DNA from: Chloracidobacterium sp.
Lineage (GTDB): Bacteria > Acidobacteriota > Blastocatellia > Pyrinomonadales > Pyrinomonadaceae
NCBI GenBank assembly: GCA_016711345.1
Contig: JADJTD010000002.1
Span: forward strand, 277-64,276
DNA: 64,000 bases
Reading direction: 5' to 3'
Shown: piece after piece, positions 4,543-47,666 of the stretch
How positions within the stretch are numbered: the first letter of the stretch is position 1
Layout of the letters: every line of letters starts with the position of its first letter
The notes under the pieces: generated by a model
Database searches by the model: none
What the model saw: the letters and a program-made list of their open reading frames with translations, nothing else
Told to the model about the DNA's origin: nothing
Position numbers and translations under genes: made by a program

Positions 4543-4554
4543 TTCATTTCTCCT
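4536..4554. repeat. 19-nt exact repeat, copy 2
   Basis: Identical to 4345..4363. Confidence 0.8.
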
Positions 4555-5491: not shown

Positions 5492-6448
5492 TTATGCTGC
5501 CAGCGCGACAAGCTCGTTCATCGCACGCACCTTGAGCTGCGCACCGTCGCCGAACCACGCACTATTCAAGCGGTTGTTCTGGTTCCGCGCACGCTTCTTG
5601 AAATCCACGTACTCGGTGACCGAGTTGATCAGACCCCAGGCGGTATCACCGGCAAGATCAGCACCGATGAACGTCTGATCCTTGAACATCTGGATCACGT
5701 TGTCGACGTGGATGCGATCCGGGTCGAGTGTGCGTGCCTGCATGTCCTCTGGCATCTTGAACACCTTGTCCATGATCTCGGTAGCCTTGGCCGTATCAAG
5801 CTTGATCTTGGCCAACACATCGAGCGTCTTGGTGAAGGTCTCCCACTGTTCACGTCCAATGCCGAGCTGAGCCTTGATCTCGTCAGGGCGGAAGTCACAT
5901 GCATGCGGAATCGTCACTCGGCCAGTGCTGTTACCCAGTGCCTGCTGCAGCGTGTTGTTACACACGACTCTGACGGAAGTGAACTGAGCGAGAGTAGAGA
6001 GCGTCAGATCGTAGGACGTGCTGAGCAGCAGGTAGCCGTCGACACGATCCTGGCCGAGTACCTTGTGCACATCGCCCGTTTCAGCGAGACACCAGATGCG
6101 GCCACCGTCCATGAGCGAGCCTGCGGTGTGCATCTTCATGTTGTGCATCGAGAGTAGATCACGGAAGAACTCGAAGACCTGTTTCGGCTGTACCGGCTTG
6201 TAGCGGTCAGACACAACGGAGTAGGGTTTGTCGTCCGTATCGCGAGCGATGACGAAGCGCTTTGGGAAGGTGCGCATGTAGTCCGCGCTACCTTCCTCGC
6301 AGTACTTCACCGGGCGCTTACTCACGGTCCAGTCCAAACCTGCTTCCTTCTGAAAATCTTCGAGGGCGATGTTGTCCTCGACCTTGTTACCGAGACCGTG
6401 CCACGGAACTTGTCCAGCGTACGCCATTGTTTCAATCATGTGTGCCAT
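5492..6448 (-). CDS. DUF932 / phage-plasmid-like protein (TIGR03299-type)
   Basis: 318 aa. From memory, the overall pattern MIETMAY.G..PWHGLG...RVVCNNT...NSAWFG fits the DUF932 family. A TAGGAGG RBS lies upstream. Confidence 0.75.
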   Translation of the reverse strand: MAHMIETMAYAGQVPWHGLGNKVEDNIALEDFQKEAGLDWTVSKRPVKYCEEGSADYMRTFPKRFVIARDTDDKPYSVVSDRYKPVQPKQVFEFFRDLLSMHNMKMHTAGSLMDGGRIWCLAETGDVHKVLGQDRVDGYLLLSTSYDLTLSTLAQFTSVRVVCNNTLQQALGNSTGRVTIPHACDFRPDEIKAQLGIGREQWETFTKTLDVLAKIKLDTAKATEIMDKVFKMPEDMQARTLDPDRIHVDNVIQMFKDQTFIGADLAGDTAWGLINSVTEYVDFKKRARNQNNRLNSAWFGDGAQLKVRAMNELVALAA

Positions 6449-6629: not shown

Positions 6630-7091
6630 CTACCTCGTTGTTTGCTCCTTGATCCAAGCAGCGAGGCCCTGCCTAGTACGCAAAAGACAGACGTACTCCT
6701 TTGCGGTCATGGAAGATTCCCACAACCTGTCTCTCAGGAGCACACCGCCAGACGGACAGCCAATAATCACTGCCACATTCCGACCTTCATCATATCGACC
6801 AGTCAACCAATCAGCCTGTAATGCGCTGAGCAGCTTCATGGGGTCAACGATTCCGCGTTGCGGTATTCGCGGAAGGTTCTTGTATTCAACCCACAGGTCA
6901 CCTGCATTGCCGCTGTACCAGCCATCAGCAGTGCCTGCGCTATATGGGTTGTTCATCTTTTCGTAATGGATGTACTGGCTTTCGTGAACCAAGGCACGCG
7001 CAGCCGTGCACATCTTCAATCGCTTCAAAGGGAGCAGCTTGTTCACTGAAGCGATGAAGACTGTCTCAGGTTTGCTTGACATACCGGTCAT
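6630..7091 (-). CDS. PD-(D/E)XK-type nuclease (Holliday-junction-resolvase-like)
   Basis: 153 aa. The segment GTADGWYSGNAGDLWVEYK fits a D...E-x-K nuclease core. The start could be the internal ATG at 7082. Confidence 0.55.
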   Translation of the reverse strand: MTGMSSKPETVFIASVNKLLPLKRLKMCTAARALVHESQYIHYEKMNNPYSAGTADGWYSGNAGDLWVEYKNLPRIPQRGIVDPMKLLSALQADWLTGRYDEGRNVAVIIGCPSGGVLLRDRLWESSMTAKEYVCLLRTRQGLAAWIKEQTTR

Positions 7092-7404
7092 CCAGTTCAG
7101 GATGCGTGGTCATGTACTCAATCAGGAACGCAAGATTACAGCGTGCGTGTGCGAGGTGATGAATACCGGTTTCTTTGTCGAATGTCTCACCCGCATTGAA
7201 CGCTAGGGTATGACGAAGTGCAGCGTCGATGAGGCGTGACCACGCCATGCCACCGCGCCAGTTGTCTCGCCCGTATTTATTCTCGCCATATGCCATGACG
7301 AGCGCTTCTTGTATTAGAGCCGATTGCGGGATGAGACCGAGGGTTGCCTTGGAAGCGTCATGTTTCGTTGCTTCTTTGACAGGAGTTTTTTTTGATGTTG
7401 CCAT
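7066..7404 (-). CDS. MazG-like nucleotide pyrophosphohydrolase (dATP/dGTP diphosphohydrolase N-terminal-type domain)
   Basis: Motif KYGRDNW...W..L.DAALRH..A...GE..D.ETG.HHLAH...NLAFL. I placed the start at ATG 7404, after GGAGATAAAG. The track start at 7416 is a TTG. Confidence 0.7.
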   Translation of the reverse strand: MATSKKTPVKEATKHDASKATLGLIPQSALIQEALVMAYGENKYGRDNWRGGMAWSRLIDAALRHTLAFNAGETFDKETGIHHLAHARCNLAFLIEYMTTHPELDDRYVKQT

Positions 7405-7462
7405 CTTTATCTCCAAGTGTGATGGGCGTCGGCTGATTACGCGCAGCCGACCACGCGGAGCA

Positions 7463-16374: not shown

Positions 16375-16679
16375 TTCAAATCCTTTCCTTTTTCGATCCA
16401 CACATTCGCTGGTCGGCAAAGGTGCAGTTCGTTGTTGAAGTAAGCAGCGCCATGCCGCAAGCAGGAAATGATGAGCTGCTCGGCCTTATCTCGCTGCGAG
16501 TACTCTTCGTAGATGGCTTGAGAAAGTGCAGTGGTGTTCCAGATCAGTAAACCGATTAACGCCATAACGATCAATTGGGCAGCAGCACGTACGCTTGCCC
16601 AGAAATGTTTGTTTATGGTGTAGTTGGTACGCATGCCCTGGCGTTGCTGCTTTGGGTGCAGGATGTAGTTACGCGGCAT
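16371..16679 (-). CDS. membrane protein
   Basis: 102-aa track ORF with one clear hydrophobic helix (AAAQLIVMALIGLLIW). It is coupled at both ends. Confidence 0.6.
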   Translation of the reverse strand: MPRNYILHPKQQRQGMRTNYTINKHFWASVRAAAQLIVMALIGLLIWNTTALSQAIYEEYSQRDKAEQLIISCLRHGAAYFNNELHLCRPANVWIEKGKDLK

Positions 16680-17256
16680 ATGCGGCCAGTAGAGGTGATA
16701 GTTTTTTTAACCTTGTTCCAGAGCGTAATTTGCGTAGAACCTTTGCTTCAATCTGAATAATGCGATCTCTACATACACCAAGTATTTTTCCTATTTCAAC
16801 GTGTGACATATCTTCCGTAAATCGGTAGTGCAGCACTTGACGTTCGCGAGGTGTTAGCGCTTCTGTGCAAACATCAAGTAATTGTTGTGCAACTTGTTTA
16901 TTTTCGAATTCACTAATATCTAATTCATAGGATTGTTGTTCTGATGGTAGTAGTGCCGCTAATTGTTCGTGACTCATTTCCATTTCAGCAAAGTTCTTTT
17001 CCAATGGGTGCAGTTGTTCTGCACTCCAAAGGTCTTCTGGCACCTTATTGAGTAGGTCGCATAGTTGAGTTGCAATAGGGCTTAATGCCCCATACGACGT
17101 TATTGGACTACGCGTCATATTGATTAATTCGTTTACTTTCGTGTAGCTCAGATAATTTGCATCACACCATTTTTGACCAGGCGTGCCACCGGACTCTTCA
17201 ATTGCTTTTAAGAGTCGATTATTTCTGACCTTAACTGTTACGCGATAGTCCTTCAT
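16669..17256 (-). CDS. sigma-70 region-4 domain protein (atypical phage sigma or sigma-mimic)
   Basis: The C-terminus LTPRERQVLHYRFTEDMSHVEIGKILGVCRDRIIQIEAKVLRKLR is a near-textbook sigma-70 region 4.2. I recognise no region 2. The ATG at 17256 overlaps the stop of ORF 17253..17471 (ATGA). The gene is visibly AT-rich. Confidence 0.75.
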   Translation of the reverse strand: MKDYRVTVKVRNNRLLKAIEESGGTPGQKWCDANYLSYTKVNELINMTRSPITSYGALSPIATQLCDLLNKVPEDLWSAEQLHPLEKNFAEMEMSHEQLAALLPSEQQSYELDISEFENKQVAQQLLDVCTEALTPRERQVLHYRFTEDMSHVEIGKILGVCRDRIIQIEAKVLRKLRSGTRLKKLSPLLAAYAA

Positions 17257-17471
17257 AGCTGAGAACTCTCCTTCGACTTCCCCATCATTAACTGCATGAG
17301 TAAAGCTTCCGCTGATATGAGTTTTTCTTTCCAACTCGTCAAGCACAGTTCGCAGAACCAGCGGTGTGTTTTACCCCTATTAGCCTTGACGTAATCGCCG
17401 TTCTTCAAAGGGCGATAGCTGCGACAATTCGCACACCATCGATCTGAAATATTCAGGCGGCTGTAGATCAC
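17253..17471 (-). CDS. small Cys-pair (zinc-ribbon-like) protein
   Basis: 72-aa track ORF with CANC...CELC. It is coupled (ATGA) to the helicase stop and to the sigma-like gene start. Confidence 0.55.
   Translation of the reverse strand: MIYSRLNISDRWCANCRSYRPLKNGDYVKANRGKTHRWFCELCLTSWKEKLISAEALLMQLMMGKSKESSQL
17257..17346 (-). pseudogene. relic of the 5' end of a homologue of gene 16102..16374
   Basis: This frame reads ...ERKTHISGSFTHAVNDGEVEGEFSA. The functional gene reads DRKRKGFEMTTGSFKHALNDGEVEVFF. The initiator position is ATC in the relic, and the relic overlaps the 3' end of ORF 17253..17471. Confidence 0.4.
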
Positions 17472-22079: not shown

Positions 22080-22270
22080 ATCTGCTCCTTGATAGCGATG
22101 ATGTTTTTGAGAACTTGATCCTGCTGGTTGTGAATCTGATTCAGCATGTCGTCTGCCTCGCGTCGGCGTTCACGCCAGCGTCTCTCTTGCAGTTGAAGTG
22201 CCCGGTATTCCTGCTCACTCAGGATGAGCGCGATGCCCAGGTCACTGAGCTTTACGTTTTCGATGGTCAT
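22076..22270 (-). CDS. hypothetical coiled-coil protein
   Basis: 64-aa track ORF, coupled (ATGA) to the primase-helicase stop. Confidence 0.6.
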   Translation of the reverse strand: MTIENVKLSDLGIALILSEQEYRALQLQERRWRERRREADDMLNQIHNQQDQVLKNIIAIKEQI

Positions 22271-24621
22271 TTCTTCCCTCCGACGACTTTCAGTCTCTTT
22301 TTCGATAGGTTCAGAGAGGCTTCGAGTTCTCGACGAAGTTCTGCCGAGACTTTCCAGTCCACTTGAATCCCATAGCCAAGCACGTTGTTCTTGCGAATAC
22401 GTTTCAACGAGATGTTGTTGTGACGCAGTAAGCTGGTGAACTTGTTCGGCGTCTTCGGCATGTTCCCCACGTTGTACTGCAGCATGATGAGCAGCTCATC
22501 GCGGGTAATCTTGTCGTCGAAATCGGTACGAGCAATCTCTTTGAGCAACAGGATGTACGCCGCAGCGTTCGTCGTGTGCTCGTTCATGATCCCCGACTCG
22601 TTCAGCAGTTTCTCATCAGGGCGTGCCATCCAGAGAGCCTCGAAGTCACCGTCCATGATCATCTGACAGGTTTCAACAAGGCTGGTGACACCCAGGCGCT
22701 GAATCTTGGTACGTGCCTCGGTGTGCACGATAGTATTCGCTTGTACGATATCCGCCTTGTGTGCCAGCAGGAACTGAGCGAAGGCTTCAAGTTCTGCGTT
22801 CACCACGCTGTCGTCAGGTCGCGGCAGCTTCTTGCTTTGGAACTCACCCACGTTGTATCTCCGATCACCTTCAGGGATGTGTACAGGTTGCGGCATGTTC
22901 GAGCTGAACATGAAGCAGCATGTGTTCACTGCGTCATAGGCTGTACGACGCATGTGGCGAATAGGTATCGTCGGTTCAGTGATGTGATTCTTCAGTTTGG
23001 CACCGACGCGACCTTTCTCCTTGAAGTCGTCGACATCCACCTCATCGATGAAGGCGAACAGAATGTTCTCCATCCAGCCGTTGAAGTCATCCTCGACGTT
23101 CGCAGCCAGCATAGAGGCAGCATTCATACTGCCCAGTAGCTGCGAGATGATCTTGTTGAACACATAGCCCTTGCCGGTACCTTGCGTACCCTGCATGACC
23201 CAGGATGTGGTGGGCTTCTCTTGCCGCTGAAAGATGCAGGCAAACCAGTTGATCCAGTGGTCGAAGAGCTTGTCCGGATCATTGTCGGGTGTGACACCCA
23301 GCATGTGGCAGATGATGCCCTTGATCGTCGGGAAGCGTGTGTTGTGCTTTGGTTCCAAGCGCATGAAACGACTGCGCTGGAAGATGTTGATCACATGCTC
23401 GTTCTCGTCGACAGTGAAGTGTTCTTTTGGCAGGTACTTCATCTGCCAGATCGGGATGAACTCGCCAAGGAAACGTCCATGGCTGCGCATCCAGTGATCC
23501 AGTTGCGTCTCGTTCTTTGCACGGTAGAGGGAGAGCTTTTCTTCCTTCGGGTTCCACAGCCCGTTGTAGTACTCGGAGCTTTGCAGATCACGAAAGGCCA
23601 GGATCAGATCACCATCTTCTGTTGGGGTTGAGGTGTGTGCGGAACGCTGATCACATAGCTCACTGTAGTAGCCGGGCACCAGCTCCTTCGTCTTGTACCA
23701 CGTGTCACTTTTGAAGTCGTGGATCAGTTCGAAGTTGTCACGGTAGTGGTAGTAAGCCCATGAGTCACCACCGTTCAAGTTCAATCTGATGTACTCACCA
23801 CAGTCCTTGGTCTCGGTAACAGTACATACGTCAGGCTTGTTCTGTACTTCGACACCTGTCACCCAGGTGGTCTTCGCTGTGCGCTTGGGCAGGCCCTCAG
23901 CGACACGTAGTGCGTTCAGTGCTGCACGCTCGTCGACCTTCAGTGCGTTGATGTGCTTCTCACCTATGGTCTCTACAGGTATGGCCGAGAGCTTGCGCTT
24001 GACGAAGCTGATGCGTGAGTTCTTGCCCATAGGGTCTTTCATACCCTTGAAGATAGGCGGTGCGATGTACAGCAGCTTGTCGTTCTGGCACGTGGTGATA
24101 TCCAGTGGCCAGCTCAGTGTGTTCTTCGAACGCGAGAGACGCAGACCATCGTTGAACACGGTCAGGTTCTTCTCCATCAGCCACGCCTTCAGCGTGGGTG
24201 CAGCCATGGGTTTGCTCAACAGCATGAACACATGGGCACTGACTGTGCCTTCGTTCTCGTCCAGGCCATGTGAGGCAGAGTACTGCAGTGTGTAGCTGAT
24301 ATTGCCTACGCCCAGCTTGGTGAGTTCTTCATCGATGTCAGCCGTTTCATGTCGGTCAAAATCCAGACATACCCACTGGGTGACCGAATCAGTTGAGGTG
24401 GTTCCACGACGAGGCTCATTACTGAGCGGGCGTGCGATGGTGCCTTTGAGTAGGCAGTGTCCTTGGGTGGCATGTTTGTCGATCGCTTTGAACAGGTCGA
24501 GTGGGTCTTTTACTTCTTCGTTGTAACTGGTGAAGTTTGTCACCAGTGGGTAGGCATCTTTTGATGTCGGTGAAAATGACTTCACCAGAGGCAACGCTGC
24601 CCCTAGAAATGTGATCTGCAT
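22267..24621 (-). CDS. DNA primase-helicase (D5/P4-like, SF3 NTPase)
   Basis: Walker A QGTQGTGKGY and Walker B AFIDEVD in the C-terminal half, with a large N-terminal primase-like region. The ATG at 24621 follows GAGGAAATCCATT. The track start at 24666 lies upstream of it. Confidence 0.85.
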   Translation of the reverse strand: MQITFLGAALPLVKSFSPTSKDAYPLVTNFTSYNEEVKDPLDLFKAIDKHATQGHCLLKGTIARPLSNEPRRGTTSTDSVTQWVCLDFDRHETADIDEELTKLGVGNISYTLQYSASHGLDENEGTVSAHVFMLLSKPMAAPTLKAWLMEKNLTVFNDGLRLSRSKNTLSWPLDITTCQNDKLLYIAPPIFKGMKDPMGKNSRISFVKRKLSAIPVETIGEKHINALKVDERAALNALRVAEGLPKRTAKTTWVTGVEVQNKPDVCTVTETKDCGEYIRLNLNGGDSWAYYHYRDNFELIHDFKSDTWYKTKELVPGYYSELCDQRSAHTSTPTEDGDLILAFRDLQSSEYYNGLWNPKEEKLSLYRAKNETQLDHWMRSHGRFLGEFIPIWQMKYLPKEHFTVDENEHVINIFQRSRFMRLEPKHNTRFPTIKGIICHMLGVTPDNDPDKLFDHWINWFACIFQRQEKPTTSWVMQGTQGTGKGYVFNKIISQLLGSMNAASMLAANVEDDFNGWMENILFAFIDEVDVDDFKEKGRVGAKLKNHITEPTIPIRHMRRTAYDAVNTCCFMFSSNMPQPVHIPEGDRRYNVGEFQSKKLPRPDDSVVNAELEAFAQFLLAHKADIVQANTIVHTEARTKIQRLGVTSLVETCQMIMDGDFEALWMARPDEKLLNESGIMNEHTTNAAAYILLLKEIARTDFDDKITRDELLIMLQYNVGNMPKTPNKFTSLLRHNNISLKRIRKNNVLGYGIQVDWKVSAELRRELEASLNLSKKRLKVVGGKK

Positions 24622-24670
24622 AATGGATTTCCTCGGTAGAGCGAATAGTCTGACAGACTCGAACAAGCCT

Positions 24671-24696
24671 TGTCAAAGAGTTCCTCAGAGCTGAGG
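24671..24696 (-). promoter_or_regulatory. -35-like TTGACA plus CCTCAG-AG-CTGAGG palindrome upstream of the primase-helicase gene
   Basis: Minus-strand TTGACA at 24676..24671. I found no convincing -10 at 16-19 nt. The palindrome is at 24683..24696. Confidence 0.3.
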
Positions 24697-24704
24697 ATTG
24701 ACCA

Positions 24705-24744
24705 GTGTTCCACGGTGTTTCACGCTGTTTCACGCTGTGTCAGC
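24705..24744. repeat. four tandem decamers (GTGTTCCACG GTGTTTCACG CTGTTTCACG CTGTGTCAGC)
   Basis: Read directly from the sequence. The period is exactly 10 bp. The minus-strand unit is CGTGRAACAS, the same core as the sites at 26.9-27.2 kb. Confidence 0.8.
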
Positions 24745-24749
24745 AGCGT

Positions 24750-24860
24750 TCAGTCGAACCATATCCACAGCAGGGCAGGGATGAACGTGATGTAGAACAA
24801 GAAGTCGTAGAGGTGCATCTCAACTGGGAGGTTGAGGATGAATTGTATTACCTCAGTCAT
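24750..24860 (-). CDS. small membrane protein (36 aa)
   Basis: My translation is MTEVIQFILNLPVEMHLYDFLFYITFIPALLWIWFD. It has a GAGGAGG RBS. Confidence 0.4.
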   Translation of the reverse strand: MTEVIQFILNLPVEMHLYDFLFYITFIPALLWIWFD

Positions 24861-24951
24861 GATGCCCTCCTCGATGTGATGCCCATAGGTGGGTCTAACA
24901 ATGAAAAATATCGCACCTGGGGATTAACCCAAGTGCGATATGTGTTGATTG

Positions 24952-25068
24952 TCAGCTATTGGCAATGAAGTTCACAACCCACTTAAGCATTGTGACAATG
25001 CCGACGATGGTCCACATGTAGTTGCTGAATTCAAAGAAGCGTTTACCAATGTTGTATAACGTGTTCAT
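24952..25068 (-). CDS. small membrane protein (38 aa)
   Basis: My translation is MNTLYNIGKRFFEFSNYMWTIVGIVTMLKWVVNFIANS. It is coupled (ATGA) to the upstream gene and has an AAGGTGGAGG RBS. Confidence 0.45.
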   Translation of the reverse strand: MNTLYNIGKRFFEFSNYMWTIVGIVTMLKWVVNFIANS

Positions 25069-25313
25069 GACCTCCACCTTTTTGGAAGCGTATGTGGGAT
25101 AACAACACCAGCAATGAGTGCTGCCACTGTTGCTGCGAAGCCACCTGCCATGCTACCACCGTGCAGTTTGAACACAATGATGAACACCGTGATTTCAATG
25201 ACTGCTGCGATGTAGCGTTTATGTGTGATCTTCCACCAGATGCTGAACAAGCCAAGGAAGATAACCACACCGTAGATGACAGGGCCTAAGTCCATGTGGC
25301 CTAAACCAAACAT
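25065..25313 (-). CDS. membrane protein (about 3 TM helices)
   Basis: 82-aa hydrophobic track ORF. Confidence 0.65.
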   Translation of the reverse strand: MFGLGHMDLGPVIYGVVIFLGLFSIWWKITHKRYIAAVIEITVFIIVFKLHGGSMAGGFAATVAALIAGVVIPHTLPKRWRS

Positions 25314-25326
25314 GATGATCTCCTTG

Positions 25327-25551
25327 TTAAGTTGGTTCAGTAACGGCTATCCAGTTGTTCGACGGTATGATGTTCTCTACGAGAATCGAACCATCTTCGA
25401 TGCCGTTGATGACACAATCGATGCAAATATCACGACCATGTGGATATTTTAACCTTGGCGATTCGTAGCCGAGGTCGTCTAGCCGAACTGATTTGTTACA
25501 GCAAGTGCAGTGTTCCCACTGGACGCCGTTAGAATCGATGATTCCGCTCAT
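25327..25551 (-). CDS. hypothetical Cys-rich small protein
   Basis: 74-aa track ORF with CTCC...CIDC and an AAGGAG RBS. Confidence 0.6.
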   Translation of the reverse strand: MSGIIDSNGVQWEHCTCCNKSVRLDDLGYESPRLKYPHGRDICIDCVINGIEDGSILVENIIPSNNWIAVTEPT

Positions 25552-25709
25552 GATGATCTCCTTGTAACTGAATGAGTGCCGGTTACGTTATCCGGCAATG
25601 CCGCGTTTGCATTCGAATAGTTGGGCGTACGGTCAGGCTCACGCTAAGCCCCAAGTCACACGACCGGTGTAATTGCTTTATCACTCGCTACACGTGCGAG
25701 TTGCATGTA

Positions 25710-25740
25710 GAACGTGGAGAGGTTATTAGTCTCCACGTTC
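25710..25740. other. perfect 11-bp-stem hairpin (GAACGTGGAGA / TCTCCACGTTC, 9-nt loop)
   Basis: It lies about 20 nt downstream of the stop of ORF 25758..26783. There is no U-tract on either strand. It may be a factor-dependent terminator, an RNA-processing site or a stabiliser. Confidence 0.5.
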
Positions 25741-25757
25741 CCCGTCATGCGGCGGTA

Positions 25758-26783
25758 CTACTCTGCGAGTGCAGCTTGTTTCTTCGCAGACTTCGTTGCC
25801 TTGGCTTTGGCGATAGCTGTTGCCATCTTCGTAGCATGTGCCTTGGCCTCCTGCTTCACAGCAGTTTCTTCAGCTTGGCGCTGAGCGACAGCCTGGGGCA
25901 CACGTACGCGAGTGGCAGTGGCTTTGGTCACAGGTGCTTCGACAGGCTCGGGCACTTCAGCATCAGCAGCAGCGAGTGCCGCTTCCACTTCAGCATCCGT
26001 CTTGTCGAATTCTGCATCGGCAGCCAGCAGTGTGTCTTCGATGCGTTTTTCTTCACCATCGAGTTTGGCCACGTCGATGCCCGTTTCAACCATGAGTTTT
26101 TCAATCTCGGGGAGATAACGGTTACACGCCTCGATGTGGCTGGCGATGAAGCTGCGATCACGCAGGGACTTGAGGTGAATACGCATTTCACGCAGCGGAC
26201 GCACCAGCTTTTCCAGCAGCGATTCGACGATGTAGCCGTACTCGTCGAAATCAACGAGTTGTGCGTCGTCACCGACAACGCCCGTGCTGAGTTCGCTGTC
26301 GGAAGAGTTGCACAGGAAGTACACCTCGTCGAGCAGTGCTTCGTTCTGCGCCTTCTGGGCAGTTGCCTGCTCCAGCTTGAGCGTTTGCAGCTCGGTACGG
26401 CGTTTCACGATTTGTTCCACGGACATGGGCTTGTTGCGCAGTTCCATGGCCACCTGGTCGCGTGTCAGCTTCTTGATGGCGTCGATATTGATCTCGGCGT
26501 CAATCTTGAGGCAGTTGCGGATCGCACCCATGCCAACTTCGTGGGATTCAGCCAGCTTGGCGAAATGGCGCAGGGATGCCAGAGCAACCTTGACCTGATC
26601 ACCTTTCTCGCTGTTGCGAATGTCTTCGTCCATACGAGCGAGGACAGCAGCGCGGTTGATGATGTTCCACTCAAACGGAGAGCTGAGCAGCCAGCCGATG
26701 TTGAGTTTGCGGAAGATCGGATCAGTCGAGAGCGACTGGGTTTTGCTGAAGATGTTGATGATGCTTTGTGCAGTGTGAGTCAT
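25758..26783 (-). CDS. hypothetical protein with Lys/Ala-rich C-terminal tail
   Basis: 341-aa track ORF with an AGGAG RBS. It is the first large gene after the noncoding island. The long plus-strand ORF antisense to it is judged spurious. Confidence 0.75.
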   Translation of the reverse strand: MTHTAQSIINIFSKTQSLSTDPIFRKLNIGWLLSSPFEWNIINRAAVLARMDEDIRNSEKGDQVKVALASLRHFAKLAESHEVGMGAIRNCLKIDAEINIDAIKKLTRDQVAMELRNKPMSVEQIVKRRTELQTLKLEQATAQKAQNEALLDEVYFLCNSSDSELSTGVVGDDAQLVDFDEYGYIVESLLEKLVRPLREMRIHLKSLRDRSFIASHIEACNRYLPEIEKLMVETGIDVAKLDGEEKRIEDTLLAADAEFDKTDAEVEAALAAADAEVPEPVEAPVTKATATRVRVPQAVAQRQAEETAVKQEAKAHATKMATAIAKAKATKSAKKQAALAE

Positions 26784-26809
26784 GATGTTACTCCTGTGTG
26801 ATTAAGTGA

Positions 26810-26829
26810 TGTAGTGAAGTTTCACTACA
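26810..26829 (-). promoter_or_regulatory. 5'-leader hairpin (TGTAGTGAA-GT-TTCACTACA)
   Basis: It lies between terminator t2 and the RBS of ORF 25758..26783. Confidence 0.4.
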
Positions 26830-26833
26830 CATG

Positions 26834-26865
26834 AAGAAAGGGGTGGGATTCGCCTCGCGAATCCC
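26834..26865 (-). terminator. intrinsic terminator t2 (GGGATTCGC-GAG-GCGAATCCC + ACCCCTTTCTTC)
   Basis: 9-bp stem and 3-nt loop, followed by a T-rich run on the minus strand. It is a paralogue of the hairpin at 27891..27911. Confidence 0.6.
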
Positions 26866-26924
26866 AAAATGACAAAGTTGTATGCGAATGTGCTGCGAAG
26901 TGCCCCAAAAAGCGTTCACAAAAA

Positions 26925-27227
26925 CCGGAACATTTTGGTTCCACGGGGGTGTTTTGAAAGTCACTTATGACGATGACAACTCCTGTCGTGAAACAATCCA
27001 TTTGTCATGTATGTTCCACGGCAGAAAATACCGGAACGGAACGGTGTTCGGAACGAATATTGGAACAGCTTGAAACCATTGGTACGACTGGTTTTATAGG
27101 GTATTTGTTCCAATGTTCTAAAATATTGAATATAACAAGTGGTAATGGTCACTATGCTGTTTTTGACCATGTGTATGTTCGATATTTAGACTAAAGTTGG
27201 CGAATTTCGGAACAAATTGTTCCACGG
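26925..27227. repeat. dense array of GGAAC/GTTCC and CCGTGGAACA sites around an AT-rich core
   Basis: GGAAC starts at 26927, 27033, 27038, 27050, 27062 and 27209. GTTCC starts at 26938, 27013, 27107 and 27219. TGTTCCACGG occurs at 27012 and 27218, and GGTTCCACGG at 26937. An inverted CGTGAAACA is at 26987. The AT-rich stretch spans about 27093..27150. Confidence 0.8.
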
Positions 27228-27270
27228 CTAATTAAGCAAACGCTTATATTCAGTGCTCTATGCCATGTGG

Positions 27271-27444
27271 TTAGTGCATTGGAATAAAATCAGCGTCAGA
27301 GGATTTCTTCGGATATGTGCGGTGCATACCCGATTTGCATTGCGCCTCGTACGCGTCGATTTCATCTTCCGCTTCCTCGTCGCGCAACATTTTTTCAAGC
27401 GGGTCGTCCATGAACGACGCTTGTTCAAAAAATTCATGAAGCAT
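27271..27444 (-). CDS. small acidic early protein (57 aa)
   Basis: Track ORF trimmed to ATG 27444 after AGGAGGAAACAC. Sequence: MLHEFFEQASFMDDPLEKMLRDEEAEDEIDAYEAQ... Confidence 0.55.
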   Translation of the reverse strand: MLHEFFEQASFMDDPLEKMLRDEEAEDEIDAYEAQCKSGMHRTYPKKSSDADFIPMH

Positions 27445-27523
27445 GTGTTTCCTCCTGTGTCGGAAAGGCCAAGCGCAGAGGCTAGGCCCGATGCCCATAG
27501 GCCGTTGTGCTCGGTTTCAACGG

Positions 27524-27541
27524 AGCGTGGGTTGCCCCACG
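27524..27541 (-). other. hairpin GCGTGGG-GCAA-CCCACGC after ORF 27555..27827
   Basis: 7-bp stem with a GNRA-type loop on the minus strand and a weak T-run. Confidence 0.3.
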
Positions 27542-27554
27542 CCCTGTTGATTTG

Positions 27555-27827
27555 TCACTGACCGATGCGTGCGCGGATTTCAGCAGCAGCACGAGCACGG
27601 AATTCTTCAGTGCGTGCAGCCGCATCGATTGCACCGACTTTCTTGCCGAGGTCGAAGATTTCGCCAGTGCCGCCGAGCGACTCGCTGACCTTACCGGCGC
27701 GATAGCTGGCGCGTTGCACAACGTTCTCGAACTTGTTGGCGACGACGGCTGCGAGCGACGGACGATTTTCTTCAACAGTCTTGGAAGCGAGGTAGGCTTC
27801 AACGTTGAACGAGTTGGCTTTGGCCAT
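27555..27827 (-). CDS. hypothetical early protein
   Basis: 90-aa track ORF with an AGGAGAAACATC RBS. Confidence 0.65.
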   Translation of the reverse strand: MAKANSFNVEAYLASKTVEENRPSLAAVVANKFENVVQRASYRAGKVSESLGGTGEIFDLGKKVGAIDAAARTEEFRARAAAEIRARIGQ

Positions 27828-28447: not shown

Positions 28448-28957
28448 ATGGGCAAAATATCCAGAGATGCCGTCGTAACGAAGAAGGCGCGAGAAAAATC
28501 CATCTGCACCAAGCAGGAGGAGATAAAAGCCAAGCATGCGGCTGTCGTACAGGCAAAGATGGAAGGCGCATCGGACACTGACGCCATGCGTGCTGCCGGT
28601 TATCACCCATCAAACGCGCTAAACGTCATGCGTGATGAGGATGTACAGACTGCACTGGCTGAAGCACGAAGCCAGATGAGTGATATTTCGACGATCAAGC
28701 GCATCGATGTGATGAATATCTTCATGGAAGCCATCGAAATGGCGAGAACTCTTGCTGATCCGGCCAACATGATCAACGGTGCAGACAAAATCGCGAAAGT
28801 CATGGGGTATTACGCTCCGGAGACGAAGCGCATCGAGCTGACGACGGATCAAAACGTCTTCGCATCGAAACTACGGCAGCTTACCGACCAGGAGTTGATG
28901 GATTTGGCTGAAGGTCGCCTGAAAACGATCGATGGCGAGTCGGAAAGACTGCAATGA
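28448..28957 (+). CDS. terS: terminase small subunit
   Basis: Track ORF 28112..28957, trimmed to ATG 28448. The upstream part of the track ORF is antisense to the early gene. The segment ...DAMRAAGYHPSNALNVMRDEDVQTAL... fits a Terminase_2-like HTH. It is coupled (ATGA) to terL. Confidence 0.75.
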   Translation: MGKISRDAVVTKKAREKSICTKQEEIKAKHAAVVQAKMEGASDTDAMRAAGYHPSNALNVMRDEDVQTALAEARSQMSDISTIKRIDVMNIFMEAIEMARTLADPANMINGADKIAKVMGYYAPETKRIELTTDQNVFASKLRQLTDQELMDLAEGRLKTIDGESERLQ

Positions 28958-31560
28958 CACGCAAAAAGCCACTCACACTCGGTCAGCTCAAGGCACAAGA
29001 GCTTGCAAAACAGCCAGCAGAGCCAACGCCACCGCCCAAGCCAGAAAAGAAACAGCGAGTGGTCAAAGTCGACGCCGCAGAAGAACTTTTTCACCAAGAA
29101 CCTCAAGAACCTCAAGAACAGGCACCTGTACCCACCAATGAGAGTGGCCTGATTGAGCCATATCTCGCACCCATGTTTGACTACGATGCTGCGACAGCCG
29201 ACCCACTTGCTGAACTCGCTTCAAGAGAGCTGTGTCGCCGTCGTCTGTTGCCTTTCATTCAGCGTTTCCGACCAAAGTACATGGCCGGTTGGGTCCACGC
29301 AGACATCTGTCGCCGCTTCGAACGGTTCCTCCAGCAGGTAGAAAATGGCGAGGAGCCTCGTCTGCTTCTGATGATGCCTCCGCGTTCAGGTAAGTCAGAG
29401 ATTTCTTCACGCCACTACGCTGCATGGGTACTGGGGCAGCACCCGGACTGGGAAATCATCGCTGCGAGCCATACCGGCAGCCTAACCATGAGTTTCTCAC
29501 GCTACCTGCGTGACCTCATTCGTGATCCGGCCTACTCCGCTGTGTTCCCCGACGCCAGACTCGATCCATCCAGCCAGTCTGTTGAGAACTGGAACTTGAC
29601 CCGTGGTGGCGGCTACCTCGCTGCGGGTGTCGGCACGGGTATTACGGGTCGCGGTGCTCACATCCTGCTGCTGGACGACTTGGTGAAGGACATCGAGGCT
29701 GCGGACTCGCTGACGATTCGTGACAACACATGGGAGTGGTACATCTCTACTGCATACACCCGTCTCGCACCGGGTGGCGGCGTGCTTGGCCTCATGTGCA
29801 TGACTGGCGACACACTAGTGTTGATGGCGGACGGCACCGAGAAACGCCTCGACACTCTGAAGACCTCTGACAAGGTAGCCACGTACCGCAACGGGGCGCT
29901 AAGTTCCTCTCGTGTAGCGGCTTTGAAGACAAGTGGTCGAGATTTAGTCTTCAAAATTACGACGACTTCTGGTAAGATTGTCAGAGCGAATCAGAGGCAT
30001 CCCTTCCTGACAATCACACCCGACGGAGAACTCGTATGGACAAGAGTGAGAAGCTTGACTACGGCCCACAAAATCGTAGCCTGCCCGGACAATGGGGTAA
30101 GTGGAAGGGCATCGCTTGCTCAGTTGATGGATGTGAGCAGCCTGCCAAGTGCCGAGGCTTGTGTAGCTCGCACTACTACAAGAAAAAGTGGGCGGACGGG
30201 CACCGTACAAAAGCTGACGGCTACGAACCTCGTCGCAATGCCCGACTCAAGCATCGCTACGGGATCACAGCAGCCGACTACGACAGAATGTACGCCGATC
30301 AGGGCGGAAAATGCGCCATCTGCGGGTGTGGTCGGGAACGTCAACCTGCGCATTGGAAAGACAAACTCGCCGTTGATCACTGCCACGACACAGGCAGGGT
30401 TCGAGGATTGCTCTGCAACGACTGCAACGCAGGAATCGGACATCTTGGAACTGAGTCGGTGGCACGTTCCGCAGCGAAATACCTTCGACTTCACGCTGGA
30501 TGAAATCGTCAGCATTGAGTTCGACTGCGAGGAAGAAGTTTTCGACGTTCAGGTCGACGACACTGAGAACTTCATAGCCAACGGGTTGGTTTCACACAAC
30601 ACCTGGTGGCACGACGACGACTGGGCGGGTCGCATCCAGAATGCTATGGCTGCAGGGGAGGGTGACCAGTTCGAAGTTGTGCGCTACCCGGCGATCAACG
30701 AGTCTGGTGATGAGTATCTGCTGGAGGACGACACCATCGTCGAGATTCCTCCGGACTACACCGTACCGCAAGGAGCACGTCGCACACGTCCGCACAACAC
30801 GGCGATTCACCCGGAGCGCTACACCACCGAGGCCATGTTGCGTATCAAGCGCAACGCCATCGCAGCAGGCATGAAGCGCACGTGGGACGCGCTGTACCAG
30901 CAGAACCCCATACCAGACGAGGGGAACTACTTCTCAAAAGAGATGTTCCGCTACTACTCCACTGCGCCGCGCCGGGAAGACCTCTACGTGTATCAGGCAT
31001 GGGACTTCGCCATCAGCACAGGCAAGGAGAGTGATTTCACGGTGTGTGCCACTGTCGGTGTGGATCACCGCGACGCCTGCTACGTGCTCGACATCCGCCG
31101 ATTCAAGACGGCAGACGGCATACACCTCGCGGAGACGATGGTGGACATGGCGAAGCTCTTCGCTGTCGACGGTCTGGGTGTCGAGGACGGGCAGATATGG
31201 AAGTCCATCGAGACGCAGTTCCTGAAGGCTTGTGAGGAGAAGCGCACGTTCCCCAGCTTCGAAGTGCTGAAGCCTCTGACGGACAAGATGGTACGGGCGA
31301 ATCCGTTGAAGGGGCGCATGCAGGCGGGGAAGGTGTATTTCGACCAGAACGCTCACTGGTGGAAGGACTTGCAGAAAGAGATGTTGCACTTCCCTGCAGG
31401 GAAGCACGACGACCAGATCGACGCCCTTGCCTGGGTCACGCGCCTCATCCTGACCCGTACAGCACCTCGCGAAAAGCGCCCTGAGCCAAAACTCAAGAGC
31501 TGGAAGGACGATCTCGCTCGTTTCATGGAGAACGGAGGCGGTACACACATGAGCGCCTAG
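28954..31560 (+). CDS. terL: terminase large subunit, interrupted by an intein
   Basis: 868 aa. Walker A PPRSGKSE and Walker B HILLLDDLV. The host-protein (extein) junction is GLM|C...HN|TWWHDDDW. The spliced product would be 600 aa. Confidence 0.9.
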   Translation: MTRKKPLTLGQLKAQELAKQPAEPTPPPKPEKKQRVVKVDAAEELFHQEPQEPQEQAPVPTNESGLIEPYLAPMFDYDAATADPLAELASRELCRRRLLPFIQRFRPKYMAGWVHADICRRFERFLQQVENGEEPRLLLMMPPRSGKSEISSRHYAAWVLGQHPDWEIIAASHTGSLTMSFSRYLRDLIRDPAYSAVFPDARLDPSSQSVENWNLTRGGGYLAAGVGTGITGRGAHILLLDDLVKDIEAADSLTIRDNTWEWYISTAYTRLAPGGGVLGLMCMTGDTLVLMADGTEKRLDTLKTSDKVATYRNGALSSSRVAALKTSGRDLVFKITTTSGKIVRANQRHPFLTITPDGELVWTRVRSLTTAHKIVACPDNGVSGRASLAQLMDVSSLPSAEACVARTTTRKSGRTGTVQKLTATNLVAMPDSSIATGSQQPTTTECTPIRAENAPSAGVVGNVNLRIGKTNSPLITATTQAGFEDCSATTATQESDILELSRWHVPQRNTFDFTLDEIVSIEFDCEEEVFDVQVDDTENFIANGLVSHNTWWHDDDWAGRIQNAMAAGEGDQFEVVRYPAINESGDEYLLEDDTIVEIPPDYTVPQGARRTRPHNTAIHPERYTTEAMLRIKRNAIAAGMKRTWDALYQQNPIPDEGNYFSKEMFRYYSTAPRREDLYVYQAWDFAISTGKESDFTVCATVGVDHRDACYVLDIRRFKTADGIHLAETMVDMAKLFAVDGLGVEDGQIWKSIETQFLKACEEKRTFPSFEVLKPLTDKMVRANPLKGRMQAGKVYFDQNAHWWKDLQKEMLHFPAGKHDDQIDALAWVTRLILTRTAPREKRPEPKLKSWKDDLARFMENGGGTHMSA
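29797..30600 (+). mobile_element. Hint-type intein (268 codons) in terL
   Basis: Cys1 CMTGDTLVLMADG, block B ...ANQRHPF, a C-terminal ...VFDVQVDDTENFIANGLVSHN, and a +1 Thr. The central ~125 codons are low-complexity but contain no stop. Confidence 0.85.
30036..30503 (+). CDS. endonuclease VII-type HNH homing endonuclease, overprinted inside the intein in another frame
   Basis: 155-aa track ORF with GGAG 8 nt upstream. Motif HRYGITAADYDRMYADQGGKCAICG...LAVDHCHDTGRVRGLLCNDCNAGIGHLG. The frame differs from terL (30036 is the third position of a terL codon). Confidence 0.8.
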   Translation: MDKSEKLDYGPQNRSLPGQWGKWKGIACSVDGCEQPAKCRGLCSSHYYKKKWADGHRTKADGYEPRRNARLKHRYGITAADYDRMYADQGGKCAICGCGRERQPAHWKDKLAVDHCHDTGRVRGLLCNDCNAGIGHLGTESVARSAAKYLRLHAG

Positions 31561-31561
31561 T

Positions 31562-31591
31562 TTGTCAACGGGTATAACACTCTGATACACT
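31562..31591 (+). promoter_or_regulatory. CTCTGATA-family promoter candidate
   Basis: TTGTCA-N18-TACACT with TGn (CACTCTGATACACTCTGG). CACTCTG occurs twice, 10 nt apart. It lies 27 nt upstream of ATG 31619. Confidence 0.5.
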
Positions 31592-36577: not shown

Positions 36578-37024
36578 ATGGCAAAATTGCTTGCAACCCG
36601 CTCTGCTCAGTGGCCGCTGCTGGCCGAGTTCACCTTCAACTTCGACGACACGATGGTCGACATCAACGGTGTGGAGAAGAGCTTCGGTTCGACCTACACC
36701 CACCTCATCGTAGCCTCGGCTCTCAATCTGCCGGATAACGCGGTGGTTGTAGGTGGCGAAGTCGTCATCGATGTTCAGGGTGTTGGCCCGACTGTCTACA
36801 CTGTCTCGCTGGGCGACTCTGCGTTGGCCACACGTTACGCTTCGGCAGTCGATCTGAAAGGCGCTGTCGGTACTCGCACCGCGCTGACTCTGACCGGTTT
36901 CCGCGCCACGGAAAACCTTCGCCTGACGATCAACTCGACCGTCGCCAACGCTTCTGCTGGCAAAGCGACGGTGCGTGTCCTGTTCGTCATCCCCGGCAAG
37001 GCCAACGAGGTGATCCCGAACTAA
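36578..37024 (+). CDS. capsid-associated protein (possible decoration protein)
   Basis: 148 aa with a TAAGGAG RBS. It lies immediately after the capsid gene and before a strong terminator. Confidence 0.65.
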   Translation: MAKLLATRSAQWPLLAEFTFNFDDTMVDINGVEKSFGSTYTHLIVASALNLPDNAVVVGGEVVIDVQGVGPTVYTVSLGDSALATRYASAVDLKGAVGTRTALTLTGFRATENLRLTINSTVANASAGKATVRVLFVIPGKANEVIPN

Positions 37025-37040
37025 TTGTTGTGAGGGCTTT

Positions 37041-37070
37041 GAGGGTGAGGAAACTCACCCTCCTTTTTGG
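37041..37070 (+). terminator. strong intrinsic terminator (GAGGGTGAG-GAAA-CTCACCCTC + CTTTTTGG)
   Basis: 9-bp GC-rich stem, tetraloop and T5 run. Confidence 0.8.
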
Positions 37071-37072
37071 GA

Positions 37073-37088
37073 CAGGGCTTCGGCCCTG
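37073..37088 (+). terminator. second hairpin (CAGGGC-TTCG-GCCCTG)
   Basis: 6-bp stem with a TTCG loop, in tandem with the previous terminator. It has no clear T-run. Confidence 0.4.
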
Positions 37089-37127
37089 CCTCATTCAACC
37101 GTAGCGCCACTATAAGACGAGGAAGTC

Positions 37128-37514
37128 ATGCCCGAATACACATTGAATCGCAACCACCTGCATCGCTCCACGCAGGGTTTCACCATCAAGTTTGAAAAAG
37201 GCCGACCGGTCCACGTTCCCCCTGCATGTGAGCGCGAAGTTGTCGCATTCGGCGCAGAGCGCGTCGACGGTGACAACCCGGATGTGCTCGCCCCAGAGAA
37301 TGTGGATGATCCGACTCCTGTTGGCCAGGATCGCGAAGCCATTCTGTTCGCAGCATTCGAACAGATCGTCGCCGTAAACGACTCGAAGGACTTCGGAGCT
37401 GCCGGTACGCCGAGCATCAAAGCTGTCGAGCGGCTGGTTAAGTTCGGCATCGACAAGAAAGAACTGCTCGAAGTCTGGCAAGCGTTCCGCGCATCCAAGG
37501 ACGAAGCACAGTGA
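37128..37514 (+). CDS. hypothetical protein
   Basis: 128-aa track ORF with a GAGGAAG RBS. Confidence 0.65.
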   Translation: MPEYTLNRNHLHRSTQGFTIKFEKGRPVHVPPACEREVVAFGAERVDGDNPDVLAPENVDDPTPVGQDREAILFAAFEQIVAVNDSKDFGAAGTPSIKAVERLVKFGIDKKELLEVWQAFRASKDEAQ

Positions 37515-46678: not shown

Positions 46679-47666
46679 AAATATTCCAGTTGAAGATAGA
46701 CACGCCACGCACAACTATGAGTATGCGAATGCTGCTGCTCGCACTGGTGCGACGGGGTTTCAAAGTTCCGATTTGCATAAGCTGGCCTTGCAGCTAGATG
46801 ATGGAACTTATTGGCGCTTGGCATCAACCACCCCCACCTGGGTTGCTTTTGGCGCTGCTGGCCCACAAGGACCGGCTGGCCCTGCTGGCCCTGCTGGCCC
46901 TGCTGGCGATGGGGCAGGGGATATGCTCAAGTCTGATAATTTGTCAGGGTTGGCCAGCTACCCTGCGGCCCGTACCAATCTCGGCCTTGGTAACGTAGAC
47001 AATACGAGCGATGCAAACAAGCCTGTTAGTAGCGCACAGGCAGCGGCTGACAGCGCAGCACAAGCCGCTGCCATTGCTGCTAGTGCACCATCTGCCCACG
47101 TTGGTGCTGGCGGAGCTGCACATGCGTTGGCGGTGGCGTCTGGTGCAGCGGGTTTCCTGAGCGGCTCTGATAAAGCGAAACTTGACGCGACCAGTGGTAC
47201 AAATACGGGTGATAATGCGGCCAACACGAATTACACCAACGACTACCGAGCAGCGAATTTCGTGGCGGGTACTAATTACCTGGCACCGGCAGCGATTGGC
47301 GTAACCGTCCAAGCATACGACGCCGACACCGCAAAGACTGACGTGGCGCAGAACTGGGTAGCCTCGCAACGCAGTGCAAACATCCCTGATAACGACGGAT
47401 CGTTTGACCTCTCTGGTGCAGGGAACAACTACGCGAGTGCCCCAACCAGCGCAGTCGCTATCACGTTCACCAACATCGCCGCCAATGCGGGGAAATCCGG
47501 ATACATCACCCTCACGAATGGAAGCAACTACGCCTACACCGCACACACGAATACGAAGATTGCAACGACTGACCTAGCCAAGATTGTCGTCAGTGGTACG
47601 TATGTCCTTCCGTATCTGTGTGATGGAACGGATGTTTTCATCCTGGGCGTCTGGACGAAGCCATGA
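46668..47666 (+). CDS. tail fibre protein with collagen-like repeat
   Basis: 332 aa. It contains GPQGPAGPAGPAGPAG and the NLGLGNVDNTSDANKP motif common in fibre proteins. Confidence 0.8.
   Translation: MLHKNIPVEDRHATHNYEYANAAARTGATGFQSSDLHKLALQLDDGTYWRLASTTPTWVAFGAAGPQGPAGPAGPAGPAGDGAGDMLKSDNLSGLASYPAARTNLGLGNVDNTSDANKPVSSAQAAADSAAQAAAIAASAPSAHVGAGGAAHALAVASGAAGFLSGSDKAKLDATSGTNTGDNAANTNYTNDYRAANFVAGTNYLAPAAIGVTVQAYDADTAKTDVAQNWVASQRSANIPDNDGSFDLSGAGNNYASAPTSAVAITFTNIAANAGKSGYITLTNGSNYAYTAHTNTKIATTDLAKIVVSGTYVLPYLCDGTDVFILGVWTKP
46869..46907 (+). repeat. in-frame 9-nt tandem repeat (GGCCCTGCT x3 plus a degenerate copy)
   Basis: Encodes the Gly-Pro-Ala collagen-like triplets. Confidence 0.8.

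Follow-up and report, generated by a model that had tools for sequence, protein, structure and literature searches.

A putative iteron-type replication origin with parS half-sites in a phage distantly related to KPP25 and phiR18

The 64-kb window analysed here (the whole stretch of contig JADJTD010000002.1 under study) appears to represent the greater part, if not the whole, of a ~64-kb phage genome, and its early arm contains, upstream of the replication genes, a noncoding island (26784-27270) crowded with short repeats. What is the role of this island? The original prediction, drawn from the letters of the window, suggested among other roles a replication origin composed of iterons and an AT-rich core. 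This is the best-supported reading, favoured by colinear islands in relatives, helically phased iterons and, in many of those relatives, DnaA boxes, although the window itself carries no DnaA box. With a probability of roughly 0.6, judged from sequence, the island is the iteron-type origin, acting in cis, from which a lytic phage remotely akin to KPP25 and phiR18 is replicated, and it is equipped with boxes for a host factor. These boxes are the unexpected component, in that apparent half-sites of the host parS stand where sister phages have DnaA boxes.

Noncoding status, repeats and melting core

The island encodes no protein. All of its open reading frames (ORFs) score at most 0.8 on a codon model trained on long genes, as anticipated by the original prediction, which saw no convincing ORF here. 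The 69-aa minus-strand ORF (26961-27170), named there as a possible refutation, proves not to be coding: its score is -0.6, an A-to-T change introduces a stop codon that shortens it to 37 aa in the ~98% identical relative L019, and the more distant relative L022 has no counterpart of this or any other island ORF.

Within the island, GGAAC occurs at 26927, 27033, 27038, 27050, 27062 and 27209, and its complement GTTCC at 26938, 27013, 27107 and 27219. This amounts to 10 sites per 300 bp against a window mean of 0.61, in line with the predicted 10 against ~0.6, and makes the island the densest spot of the window. When the island is shuffled 2000 times with its dinucleotides preserved, the mean number of GGAAC copies is 1.0 and the highest is 6. 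The pentamer count alone is nevertheless unexceptional, since other 487-bp windows hold 10-11 copies of some pentamer. Such high counts elsewhere arise because the regions are coding, as with GGTAC from Gly-Thr codons at 51 kb, a cluster dismissed as a coding artefact. The decisive enrichment is carried by the longer box CGTGRAACA, present in 8 copies where 1.5 +/- 1.3 are expected, a number reached in 0 of 100 shuffles. The octamer CGTGRAAC has 10 of its 13 copies between 24400 and 27230 (binomial P = 7e-12), nine of these ten on the minus strand. The clustering is therefore real and the long box strongly enriched, the pentamer count being the weaker part of the original case.

The inverted pairs, the direct cluster, the three copies of CCGTGGAAC(A/C) and the inverted CGTGAAACA were all found where predicted, as were tandem decamers with the same core upstream of the primase-helicase gene (24706-24735). 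GGAAC and CCGTGGAACA, both present, had been taken for one motif, but they separate into two classes. The short motif GGAAC(A) has the character of a phage-specific iteron, with a core that differs between lineages, and the long motif matches a half-site of the host chromosomal parS. Of the putative iterons, two form a tandem pair and four a phased array, and inverted pairs stand at each edge of the island.

Between the array and the left edge lies the AT-rich core, the least stable duplex in the window at segment lengths of 40, 60 and 100 bp, and it is contained in the 150-bp minimum (27056-27205). It also falls within the lowest 100- and 200-bp GC windows. The AT-rich stretch predicted at ~27093-27150 in the middle of the island has 27.6% GC and forms part of this least stable duplex. 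An iteron-type origin calls for at least three direct repeats in helical phase and an adjacent, easily melted AT-rich element; the island contains the former at 27033-27066 and the latter at 27094-27194.

Layout and conservation in relatives

Relatives, denoted by L numbers, were gathered by their primase-helicase and by the 341-aa protein encoded downstream of the island. L019 is a metagenomic relative, ~98% identical; L022 is more distant, with a 341-aa homologue of 46% identity. The closest cultured kin are the Pseudomonas phages KPP25 and phiR18 (genus Kochitakasuvirus), with 37% primase-helicase identity. Megablast of the region against cultured phages gave no DNA-level match, and tblastn of the 341-aa protein against phages gave no match.

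The island is colinear with the islands of L019, L020, L022 and L200, and the same architecture is recognised in L003, L004, L006, L029, L035, L038, L039, L042 and phiR18. By sequence comparison, its position and layout are kept in every relative recovered, down to the cultured phiR18. Conservation of the motif array, proposed at the outset as a check, takes the form of colinear islands with motif-limited identity. The window and L022 agree at 84% of the motif positions and at 45% of all others (Fisher P = 1e-9), and between the window and L019, substitutions affect 0 of 73 motif positions and 9 of 414 positions outside them. The conserved blocks of L022 coincide with the motifs: GTTCCGAAATT, belonging to the left boundary element; ATTTTAGAACATT(G/A)GAACA; GTTCY-N7-GTTCC-N7-GTTCCGTTCC; CGTGGAACA; TGTTTCACG; CCCGTGGAACC-N4/5-GTTCCG, which at the right boundary of L022 reads CCCGTGGAACC-N4-GTTCCG; and the terminator. 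The spacing of the four-iteron array is identical in L022 (12, 12, 5).

In a second set of relatives (L003, L004, L006, L029, L035, L038, L039 and L042), the iteron core is GGTAC, and a noncoding island of 0.5-0.9 kb occupies the same early arm. Its plan comprises, in order, the tandem pair GGTACA-TT-GGTACA, an AT-rich stretch of 50-75 bp, four GTACC in the opposite orientation at 10-11-bp spacing (the equivalent of the four-iteron array), a slot for boxes, and inverted GTACC/GGTAC. The window has AGAACA-TT-GGAACA and GGAAC at the same positions. Counterparts of the tandem pair are GGTACATTGGTACA in L003, L004, L006, L029, L039 and L042, CGTAACATTCGTGACA in phiR18 and GAACATTAGAACA in L200, where the iteron core is AGAACA. 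L005 combines GGAAC-TTC-GGAAC with a run of four AT-rich, GATC-containing 11-mers. In the cultured phiR18, a 678-bp gap (record 36589-37265) contains eight copies of TCGTAACA, six of TCGTGACA, the pair CGTAACA-TT-CGTGACA and a very AT-rich core. The short repeat thus reads as an iteron whose sequence, (G/A/C)G(W)ACA in general form, is specific to the lineage. Its core varies while the layout stays fixed, as co-evolution with a cognate phage protein would give.

The same comparison bears on a noncoding RNA (ncRNA), transcribed leftward from the island and ending at the hairpin 26866-26844, which had also been predicted. The minus-strand RNA folds better than shuffles (z = -3.3), a result of the many inverted GGAAC/GTTCC copies, and a terminator-like hairpin does close the island, with a strong terminator at the L022 equivalent. 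The conserved blocks, however, are short motifs in both orientations and in helical phase, between which the sequence is scrambled and no paired stems are conserved. Scans for transfer RNAs and Rfam families found nothing, with no Rfam 15 match at gathering score in the window and only chance-level matches at E <= 1 over 26600-27600. Inside the island, no sigma-70-like promoter was found on the minus strand. The closing hairpin, predicted as the terminator t2 at which the island ends, is indeed present but belongs to a general gene-leader module. An ncRNA template is accordingly very improbable, and this part of the original prediction receives no support.

In the leader module, which recurs in the phage group, a terminator-like hairpin and its T-run are followed by another hairpin, a strong ribosome-binding site (RBS) and an ATG. 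It is found in the window at 26844-26866 with 26812-26829 and at 24908-24941, in L006 at ~3430-3520, in L026 at ~700-790 and in L034 at ~1240-1325; at many boundaries between genes, it may therefore reflect regulated read-through or processing of the RNA. A further motif, CTATGGGCA(T/C)C, stands shortly after terminator-like hairpins at ~27500 and ~24890 on the minus strand of the window, and at the upstream island edge in the GGTAC-type relatives L003, L006, L035, L038 and L039. It may be an early promoter or start-site element driving transcription across the island.

A further reading is a packaging site (pac), recognised by the small terminase subunit, whose gene is on the opposite strand at a distance of ~0.85 kb. 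Leftward (minus-strand) genes start at ~28.6 kb and rightward ones at 28.1 kb; first among the latter are the probable small terminase and an intein-containing large terminase. Terminase genes also flank several half-parS arrays in other viral contigs. This proximity does not hold across relatives, the phiR18 island lying several kb from the terminase and L006 having no terminase gene for at least 2.4 kb upstream of its island. DnaA boxes and a melting-prone core are not pac features, and the same box occurs in contigs with unrelated terminases. A packaging function is thus highly unlikely. In the large terminase gene (28954-31560, plus strand), the intein (PF14890) lies between the Terminase_6N and Terminase_6C domains.

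Table 1. Coordinates of the island, its component elements and related sites (window positions unless a relative or contig is named).
Feature	Coordinates	Strand	Details
Noncoding island, putative replication origin	26784-27270		No coding ORF; GC 41% against 55% for the window
Left boundary element	27209-27226	-	Half-parS CGTGGAACA (27218-27226, minus) fused to palindrome GGAACA-AAT-TGTTCC (27209-27223)
AT-rich core, candidate DNA-unwinding element	27094-27194		Lowest duplex stability in the window
Hallmark tandem iteron pair AGAACA-TT-GGAACA	27106-27119	-	20-nt block kept in L022
Four-iteron array	27033-27066	-	Plus-strand GGAAC at 27033, 27038, 27050, 27062; spacing 5, 12, 12
Half-parS box CGTGGAACA	27012-27020	-	L022 slot holds three tandem copies, 10-bp period
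Half-parS box CGTGAAACA	26987-26995	+	Sole box in the opposite orientation; TGTTTCACG kept at the same place in L022
Right boundary element	26925-26946	-	CCCGTGGAACC (half-parS variant, 26937-26945), N5, GTTCCGG
Terminator-like hairpin, then CCCCTTTCTT	26844-26866	-	Stronger terminator at the L022 equivalent
Second hairpin GTAGTGAA-ac-TTCACTAC, leader of the 341-aa gene	26812-26829	-	Module of two hairpins and RBS recurs in relatives
Second site, three tandem half-parS boxes CGTGAAACAG CGTGAAACAC CGTGGAACAC	24706-24735	-	70-100 bp upstream of the primase-helicase ATG
Half-parS-like box pair inside the 341-aa gene	26401-26421	-	Encodes SVEQIVKR; probably coincidental
Primase-superfamily 3 (SF3) helicase gene, candidate initiator	22267-24621	-	784 aa from ATG 24621; DUF5906, phrog_24712
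Perfect parS in Kochitakasuvirus genomes	L041 21920-21935 (phiR18 record ~46919-46934); L043 218-233; L044 221-236; L045 218-233
Half-parS arrays in IMG/VR contigs	L174 5022-5360; L197 8074-8240; L178 4642-4760; L175 2525-2563; L176 7000-7100; L200 3940-4020

Half-sites of parS in the putative host-factor slot

The long box CGTGRAACA is identical to nine consecutive bases of parS, comprising one arm and the central base of the palindrome TGTTNCACGTGNAACA; the general consensus is TGTTNCACGTGAAACA, and the P. aeruginosa and P. putida form is TGTTCCACGTGGAACA. A full-text search with the box sequence returned almost exclusively papers on bacterial chromosome segregation. Both natural half-parS variants, GTGGAAC and GTGAAAC, are present in the window; as the heptamers GTTCCAC and GTTTCAC, identical to one parS arm, they number 12 in 24400-27230. 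In P. aeruginosa, chromatin immunoprecipitation sequencing (ChIP-seq) reveals ParB occupancy at hundreds of such half-sites, which several other ParB proteins also bind (PMC7022226). The full 16-bp palindrome TGTTNCACGTGNAACA does not occur in the window, where the best match has three mismatches and lies outside the island. The box pair within the 341-aa gene, considered as a functional site, is probably coincidental, its DNA not being conserved in L022 or L021.

The slot that follows the four-iteron array differs among relatives. In L003, L004, L006, L029 and L035 it contains three or four perfect DnaA boxes (TGTGGATAA), in L003 as three tandem copies at 11-bp spacing, whereas in the window and L022 it contains CGTGRAACA boxes. 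The islands of L039 and L042 retain the full architecture without any host-factor boxes. L038 pairs GGTAC iterons with GTTCCACG-at-GTTTCACG in this slot; the long box is therefore a separate module, alternating with DnaA boxes. The same exchange is seen 70-100 bp upstream of the primase-helicase start, where L004 and L006 each have one perfect DnaA box instead of the half-parS boxes of the window (three) and L022 (two). DnaA boxes in sister phages at the place of the half-parS boxes here suggest recruitment of different host origin proteins.

A complete parS is found in the cultured relatives. In all four Kochitakasuvirus genomes checked (phiR18, KPP25, CRPAP1904 and YMC17/07/R4900a), a perfect 16-bp P. 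aeruginosa parS (TGTTCCACGTGGAACA) lies just past a stop codon, that of the gene in front of the major head gene, and is followed by a terminator. By our arithmetic, the chance of one perfect 16-bp parS per 64 kb is ~1.5e-5, and the phage clade therefore has a genuine connection with the host ParB system. The searched literature does not mention the Kochitakasuvirus parS, and full-text searches returned no paper describing host chromosomal parS or half-parS in phage genomes.

Half-parS arrays extend to other viruses. The tandem CGTGRAACA-N-CGTGRAACA is present in 35 IMG/VR contigs, against one for a composition-matched scrambled control. Most of these contigs show no relationship to the window phage; their arrays have a 10-bp period and often occupy divergent intergenic regions. 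L174 has 17 boxes in 300 bp and L175 four in tandem; L197 combines seven boxes with one DnaA box and an AT-rich stretch, and in L176 and L200 the boxes are accompanied by AGAAC/GGAAC repeats. A BLAST search of cultured phages with a synthetic half-parS array gave no match, probably owing to the low-complexity filter or the short length. Within 5 kb of the arrays, the contigs have no protein family in common (BLASTP 1e-5), the window-phage relative L200 aside, and a ParB domain is found in 0 of 61 flanking ORFs; nor do the ~48 window proteins scanned include a ParB-like domain. A host-encoded reader is therefore more economical than a phage-encoded one.

In many phages, tandem arrays of host parS half-sites with a 10-bp period might thus form a cis-element that recruits ParB to the origin region, interchangeable with DnaA-box arrays, a tentative generalisation that is rather doubtful at present. 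If it holds, phage origins would plug into whichever host origin-proximal protein is available, ParB would be an unrecognised host factor for the replication or genome organisation of lytic phages, and its recruitment would tie the replication of phage genomes, or their positioning, to the apparatus of host chromosome segregation.

The half-parS identity of the boxes also raises the question of whether the island is an origin at all, or an element that docks host ParB, capturing it to place or condense the phage DNA or titrating it off the host chromosome. The perfect parS of the cultured relatives, far from the island and beside the capsid gene, and the arrays in many unrelated viral contigs are consistent with such docking. 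The GGTAC-type sisters, on the other hand, have architecturally complete islands in which DnaA boxes are present or, in L042 and L039, host-factor boxes are missing altogether. Sister islands are intact without half-parS, and docking is therefore not the core function. Half-sites moreover do not support ParB spreading in P. aeruginosa (PMC7022226). As the whole explanation, ParB docking is improbable.

Somewhat less improbable, though still unlikely, is a transcriptional control region without a replication role. Here, a phage regulator would bind the GGAAC and CGTGRAACA arrays, the candidates being the winged helix-turn-helix protein (15630), the protein with sigma region 4 (16669) or a small early protein; early transcription would be shut off, or passed through the terminator into the 341-aa and primase-helicase genes. 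The location of the island fits this, inside the leftward early operon between an early gene and the terminator-like hairpin, as do the same long box upstream of the primase-helicase gene, the sigma-70-family protein encoded by the phage and the ability of both DnaA and ParB to serve as transcription factors (PMC7022226). Against it, the motifs cluster here and at 24.7 kb only, not in other intergenic regions, and recurrent promoter-like sites bear another motif, ACTCTGA-N4-ACTCTG. The eight forward-oriented GGAAC sites have no shared -10 element; they are therefore not promoters of the extracytoplasmic function (ECF) type, a sigma-70-type reading in which GGAAC would be the -35 element. As a sigma-54 promoter element GGAAC was likewise rejected, manual reading giving no consistent downstream element. 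Phased iterons together with an AT-rich minimum and DnaA-box arrays constitute the classical signature of an origin.

The ACTCTGA-N4-ACTCTG(ATAGACT) motif is intergenic on both arms, at 31580 and 35170 on the plus strand of the window and at 24690, 19644 and 3222 on the minus strand. It is kept upstream of the primase-helicase gene in all relatives (L002-L006, L022). It probably serves as a promoter or regulator site peculiar to the phage, and the phage sigma factor may be what reads it.

Candidate initiator and comparison with known systems

If the island is an origin, the most likely candidate for the iteron binder is the 784-aa primase-SF3 helicase, acting through a predicted C-terminal winged helix. 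The replication genes of the leftward arm also encode an SNF2 helicase, a PD-(D/E)XK nuclease and the sigma-70-family protein. Of the proteins common to all relatives, the primase-helicase appears to be the only one that has a plausible DNA-binding module. The protein matches DUF5906 with 66.6 bits, above the cut-off, and resembles the NrS-1 helicase domain; the match to TIGR01613 (P4-family primase) is weak, at 32 bits against a cut-off of 108.7. Its last ~100 residues are modelled as beta-alpha-alpha-beta-beta, a winged-helix topology, with a predicted local distance difference test score (pLDDT) of ~90. In Foldseek, the top match of this model is the C-terminal region of NrS-1 (probability 0.99, E = 0.065), followed by assorted weak winged-helix regulators. 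A primase and SF3 helicase joined to a C-terminal winged-helix origin binder has precedents in P4 alpha and pRN1 ORF904 (PMC2777425).

The wing of this predicted domain varies with the iteron. In the GGTAC-type L002, L003, L004 and L006 it contains ...ETKQ-R-NGQKTYG, and in both GGAAC-type phages (the window and L005) ...KRI(R/K)..., L005 being otherwise more distant and relatively nearer to the window in this segment. The L002 island, retrieved later, is of the GGTAC type, matching the expectation from the wing.

The 341-aa protein was considered as the initiator and set aside. It has no Pfam, PHROG or NCBIfam match, and its gene lies apart from the island in GGTAC-type relatives and in phiR18; the model is confidently all-alpha (pLDDT 88), with no fold match in the PDB. 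Encoded at 25758-26783 on the minus strand, it belongs to a family of ~27 members confined to this phage group, with an Ala/Lys-rich C-terminal helix.

These elements suggest an origin of three modules: the GGAAC(A) iterons, the easiest-melting AT-rich core, and boxes for a host origin-associated protein. In the proposed mechanism, the initiator, possibly the primase-SF3 helicase, would bind the phased iterons on one face of the helix together with the tandem pair flanking the AT-rich core. It would then melt the core, load as an SF3 hexamer and prime synthesis. The box-bound host protein (ParB here, DnaA in the sisters) may bend, stabilise, position or gate this complex. Through the boxes before the primase-helicase gene, that host protein could also be coupled to initiator expression or to a second cis site.

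Several observations weigh against the origin reading or its parts. The cumulative GC skew reaches its minimum away from the island, at ~16-17.6 kb, where repeats are absent and the AT-rich sigma gene is located. The iteron core of 5-6 bp is far below the 17-22 bp of classical plasmid iterons. No DnaA box is found in the window island, even with one mismatch allowed. The C-terminal domain of the primase-helicase has only weak winged-helix matches (E > 0.06), and a fold link to P4 alpha was rejected, 1KA8 being absent from the top 50 Foldseek matches. The co-variation of wing and iteron counts as one evolutionary change, because L002 is close kin of the other GGTAC phages. The two motif classes overlap in this lineage, since GGAACA coincides with the outer portion of a parS arm. 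The parS sequences are present as half-sites only, in direct tandem rather than as palindromes, and the ParB reading presupposes a host that possesses ParABS. The reader of the boxes may also be a small (<70 aa) or fast-evolving phage protein.

Compared with the iteron-type theta origins P1 oriR, F oriS, RK2 oriV, pSC101 and lambda ori, the island is alike in its direct repeats in helical phase, its adjacent AT-rich unwinding element and its inverted partial repeats at the edges; in the sisters L003, L004, L006, L029 and L035, host DnaA-box arrays add to the likeness. It differs in the shorter core, in iterons that occur in both orientations, in the absence of an adjacent winged-helix Rep gene and in having half-parS in place of DnaA boxes. 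The core origins of polyomaviruses and papillomaviruses consist of pentanucleotide repeats and an AT tract, which an SF3 helicase recognises by its origin-binding domain. Here too, an AT-rich element has direct and inverted pentamer repeats on either side, and an SF3 helicase is the candidate initiator; in contrast, those are eukaryotic viruses with a non-homologous DNA-binding domain and are not known to use host-factor boxes of this kind.

The iteron of satellite phage P4 is the octamer TGTTCACC. P4 ori/crr with its alpha protein, like ORF904 of the archaeal plasmid pRN1, resembles the present system in that primase and SF3 helicase are united in one large protein, for which a C-terminal winged helix is predicted here (PMC2777425). 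P4 further resembles it in having short repeats at two separate cis sites (here the island and the site upstream of the gene). It differs in the sub-threshold TIGR01613 score and the missing fold match noted above, and P4 is not known to use DnaA or ParB boxes.

Relative to the chromosomal parS and half-parS sites of ParB/Spo0J (PMC7022226), the likeness extends to nine consecutive bases, both natural variants and the perfect palindrome of the cultured relatives. The differences are the lack of a palindrome in the window, the direct tandem (10-bp period) or spaced arrangement of the boxes, and their location in a lytic phage genome beside iterons. In the origin of V. cholerae chromosome II, ParB2 binds a non-centromeric 39-mer within an iteron-type origin and competes with the initiator RctB (PMC3688505). 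A segregation protein at a non-centromeric site in an iteron-controlled origin is what is predicted here; that replicon, however, is a secondary chromosome with its own ParB2/parS2, whereas the phage would borrow ParB from the primary chromosome of its host.

In the searched literature, no description was found of an origin for the KPP25/phiR18 group, which includes Pseudomonas therapy phages, or for its environmental relatives. The island provides a precise and testable origin candidate in each member of the group.

Several other genes deserve mention. The sigma-70-family protein (225 aa, 16669-17346, minus strand) contains region 4, and its best NCBIfam match is to the C-terminus of MzaA, a sigma factor from an anti-phage system; no 490-bp segment of the window is richer in AT than the one in which its gene lies, and the cumulative GC-skew minimum is close by. 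A nucleotide-metabolism cluster, entirely on the minus strand (1941-2393, 7066-7416, 2963-3664 and 5492-6448), encodes a dCMP deaminase, a MazZ-like dATP/dGTP diphosphohydrolase N-terminal domain (PF18909), DUF7227 and DUF932. The phage nucleotide pool or DNA bases may thereby be altered, with a possible effect on the binding of host proteins to phage DNA. In the early region of L002, 21 copies of ATTGGCA, considered as a DNA iteron array, were rejected; they belong to the gene of a pentapeptide-repeat protein (3829-4704) made of 37 copies of a 15-nt unit of the A(N/D)LXX type. The most widely kept early gene encodes a small membrane protein of 82 aa (25065-25313, minus strand), which is present in all relatives and is mostly the first gene after the island.

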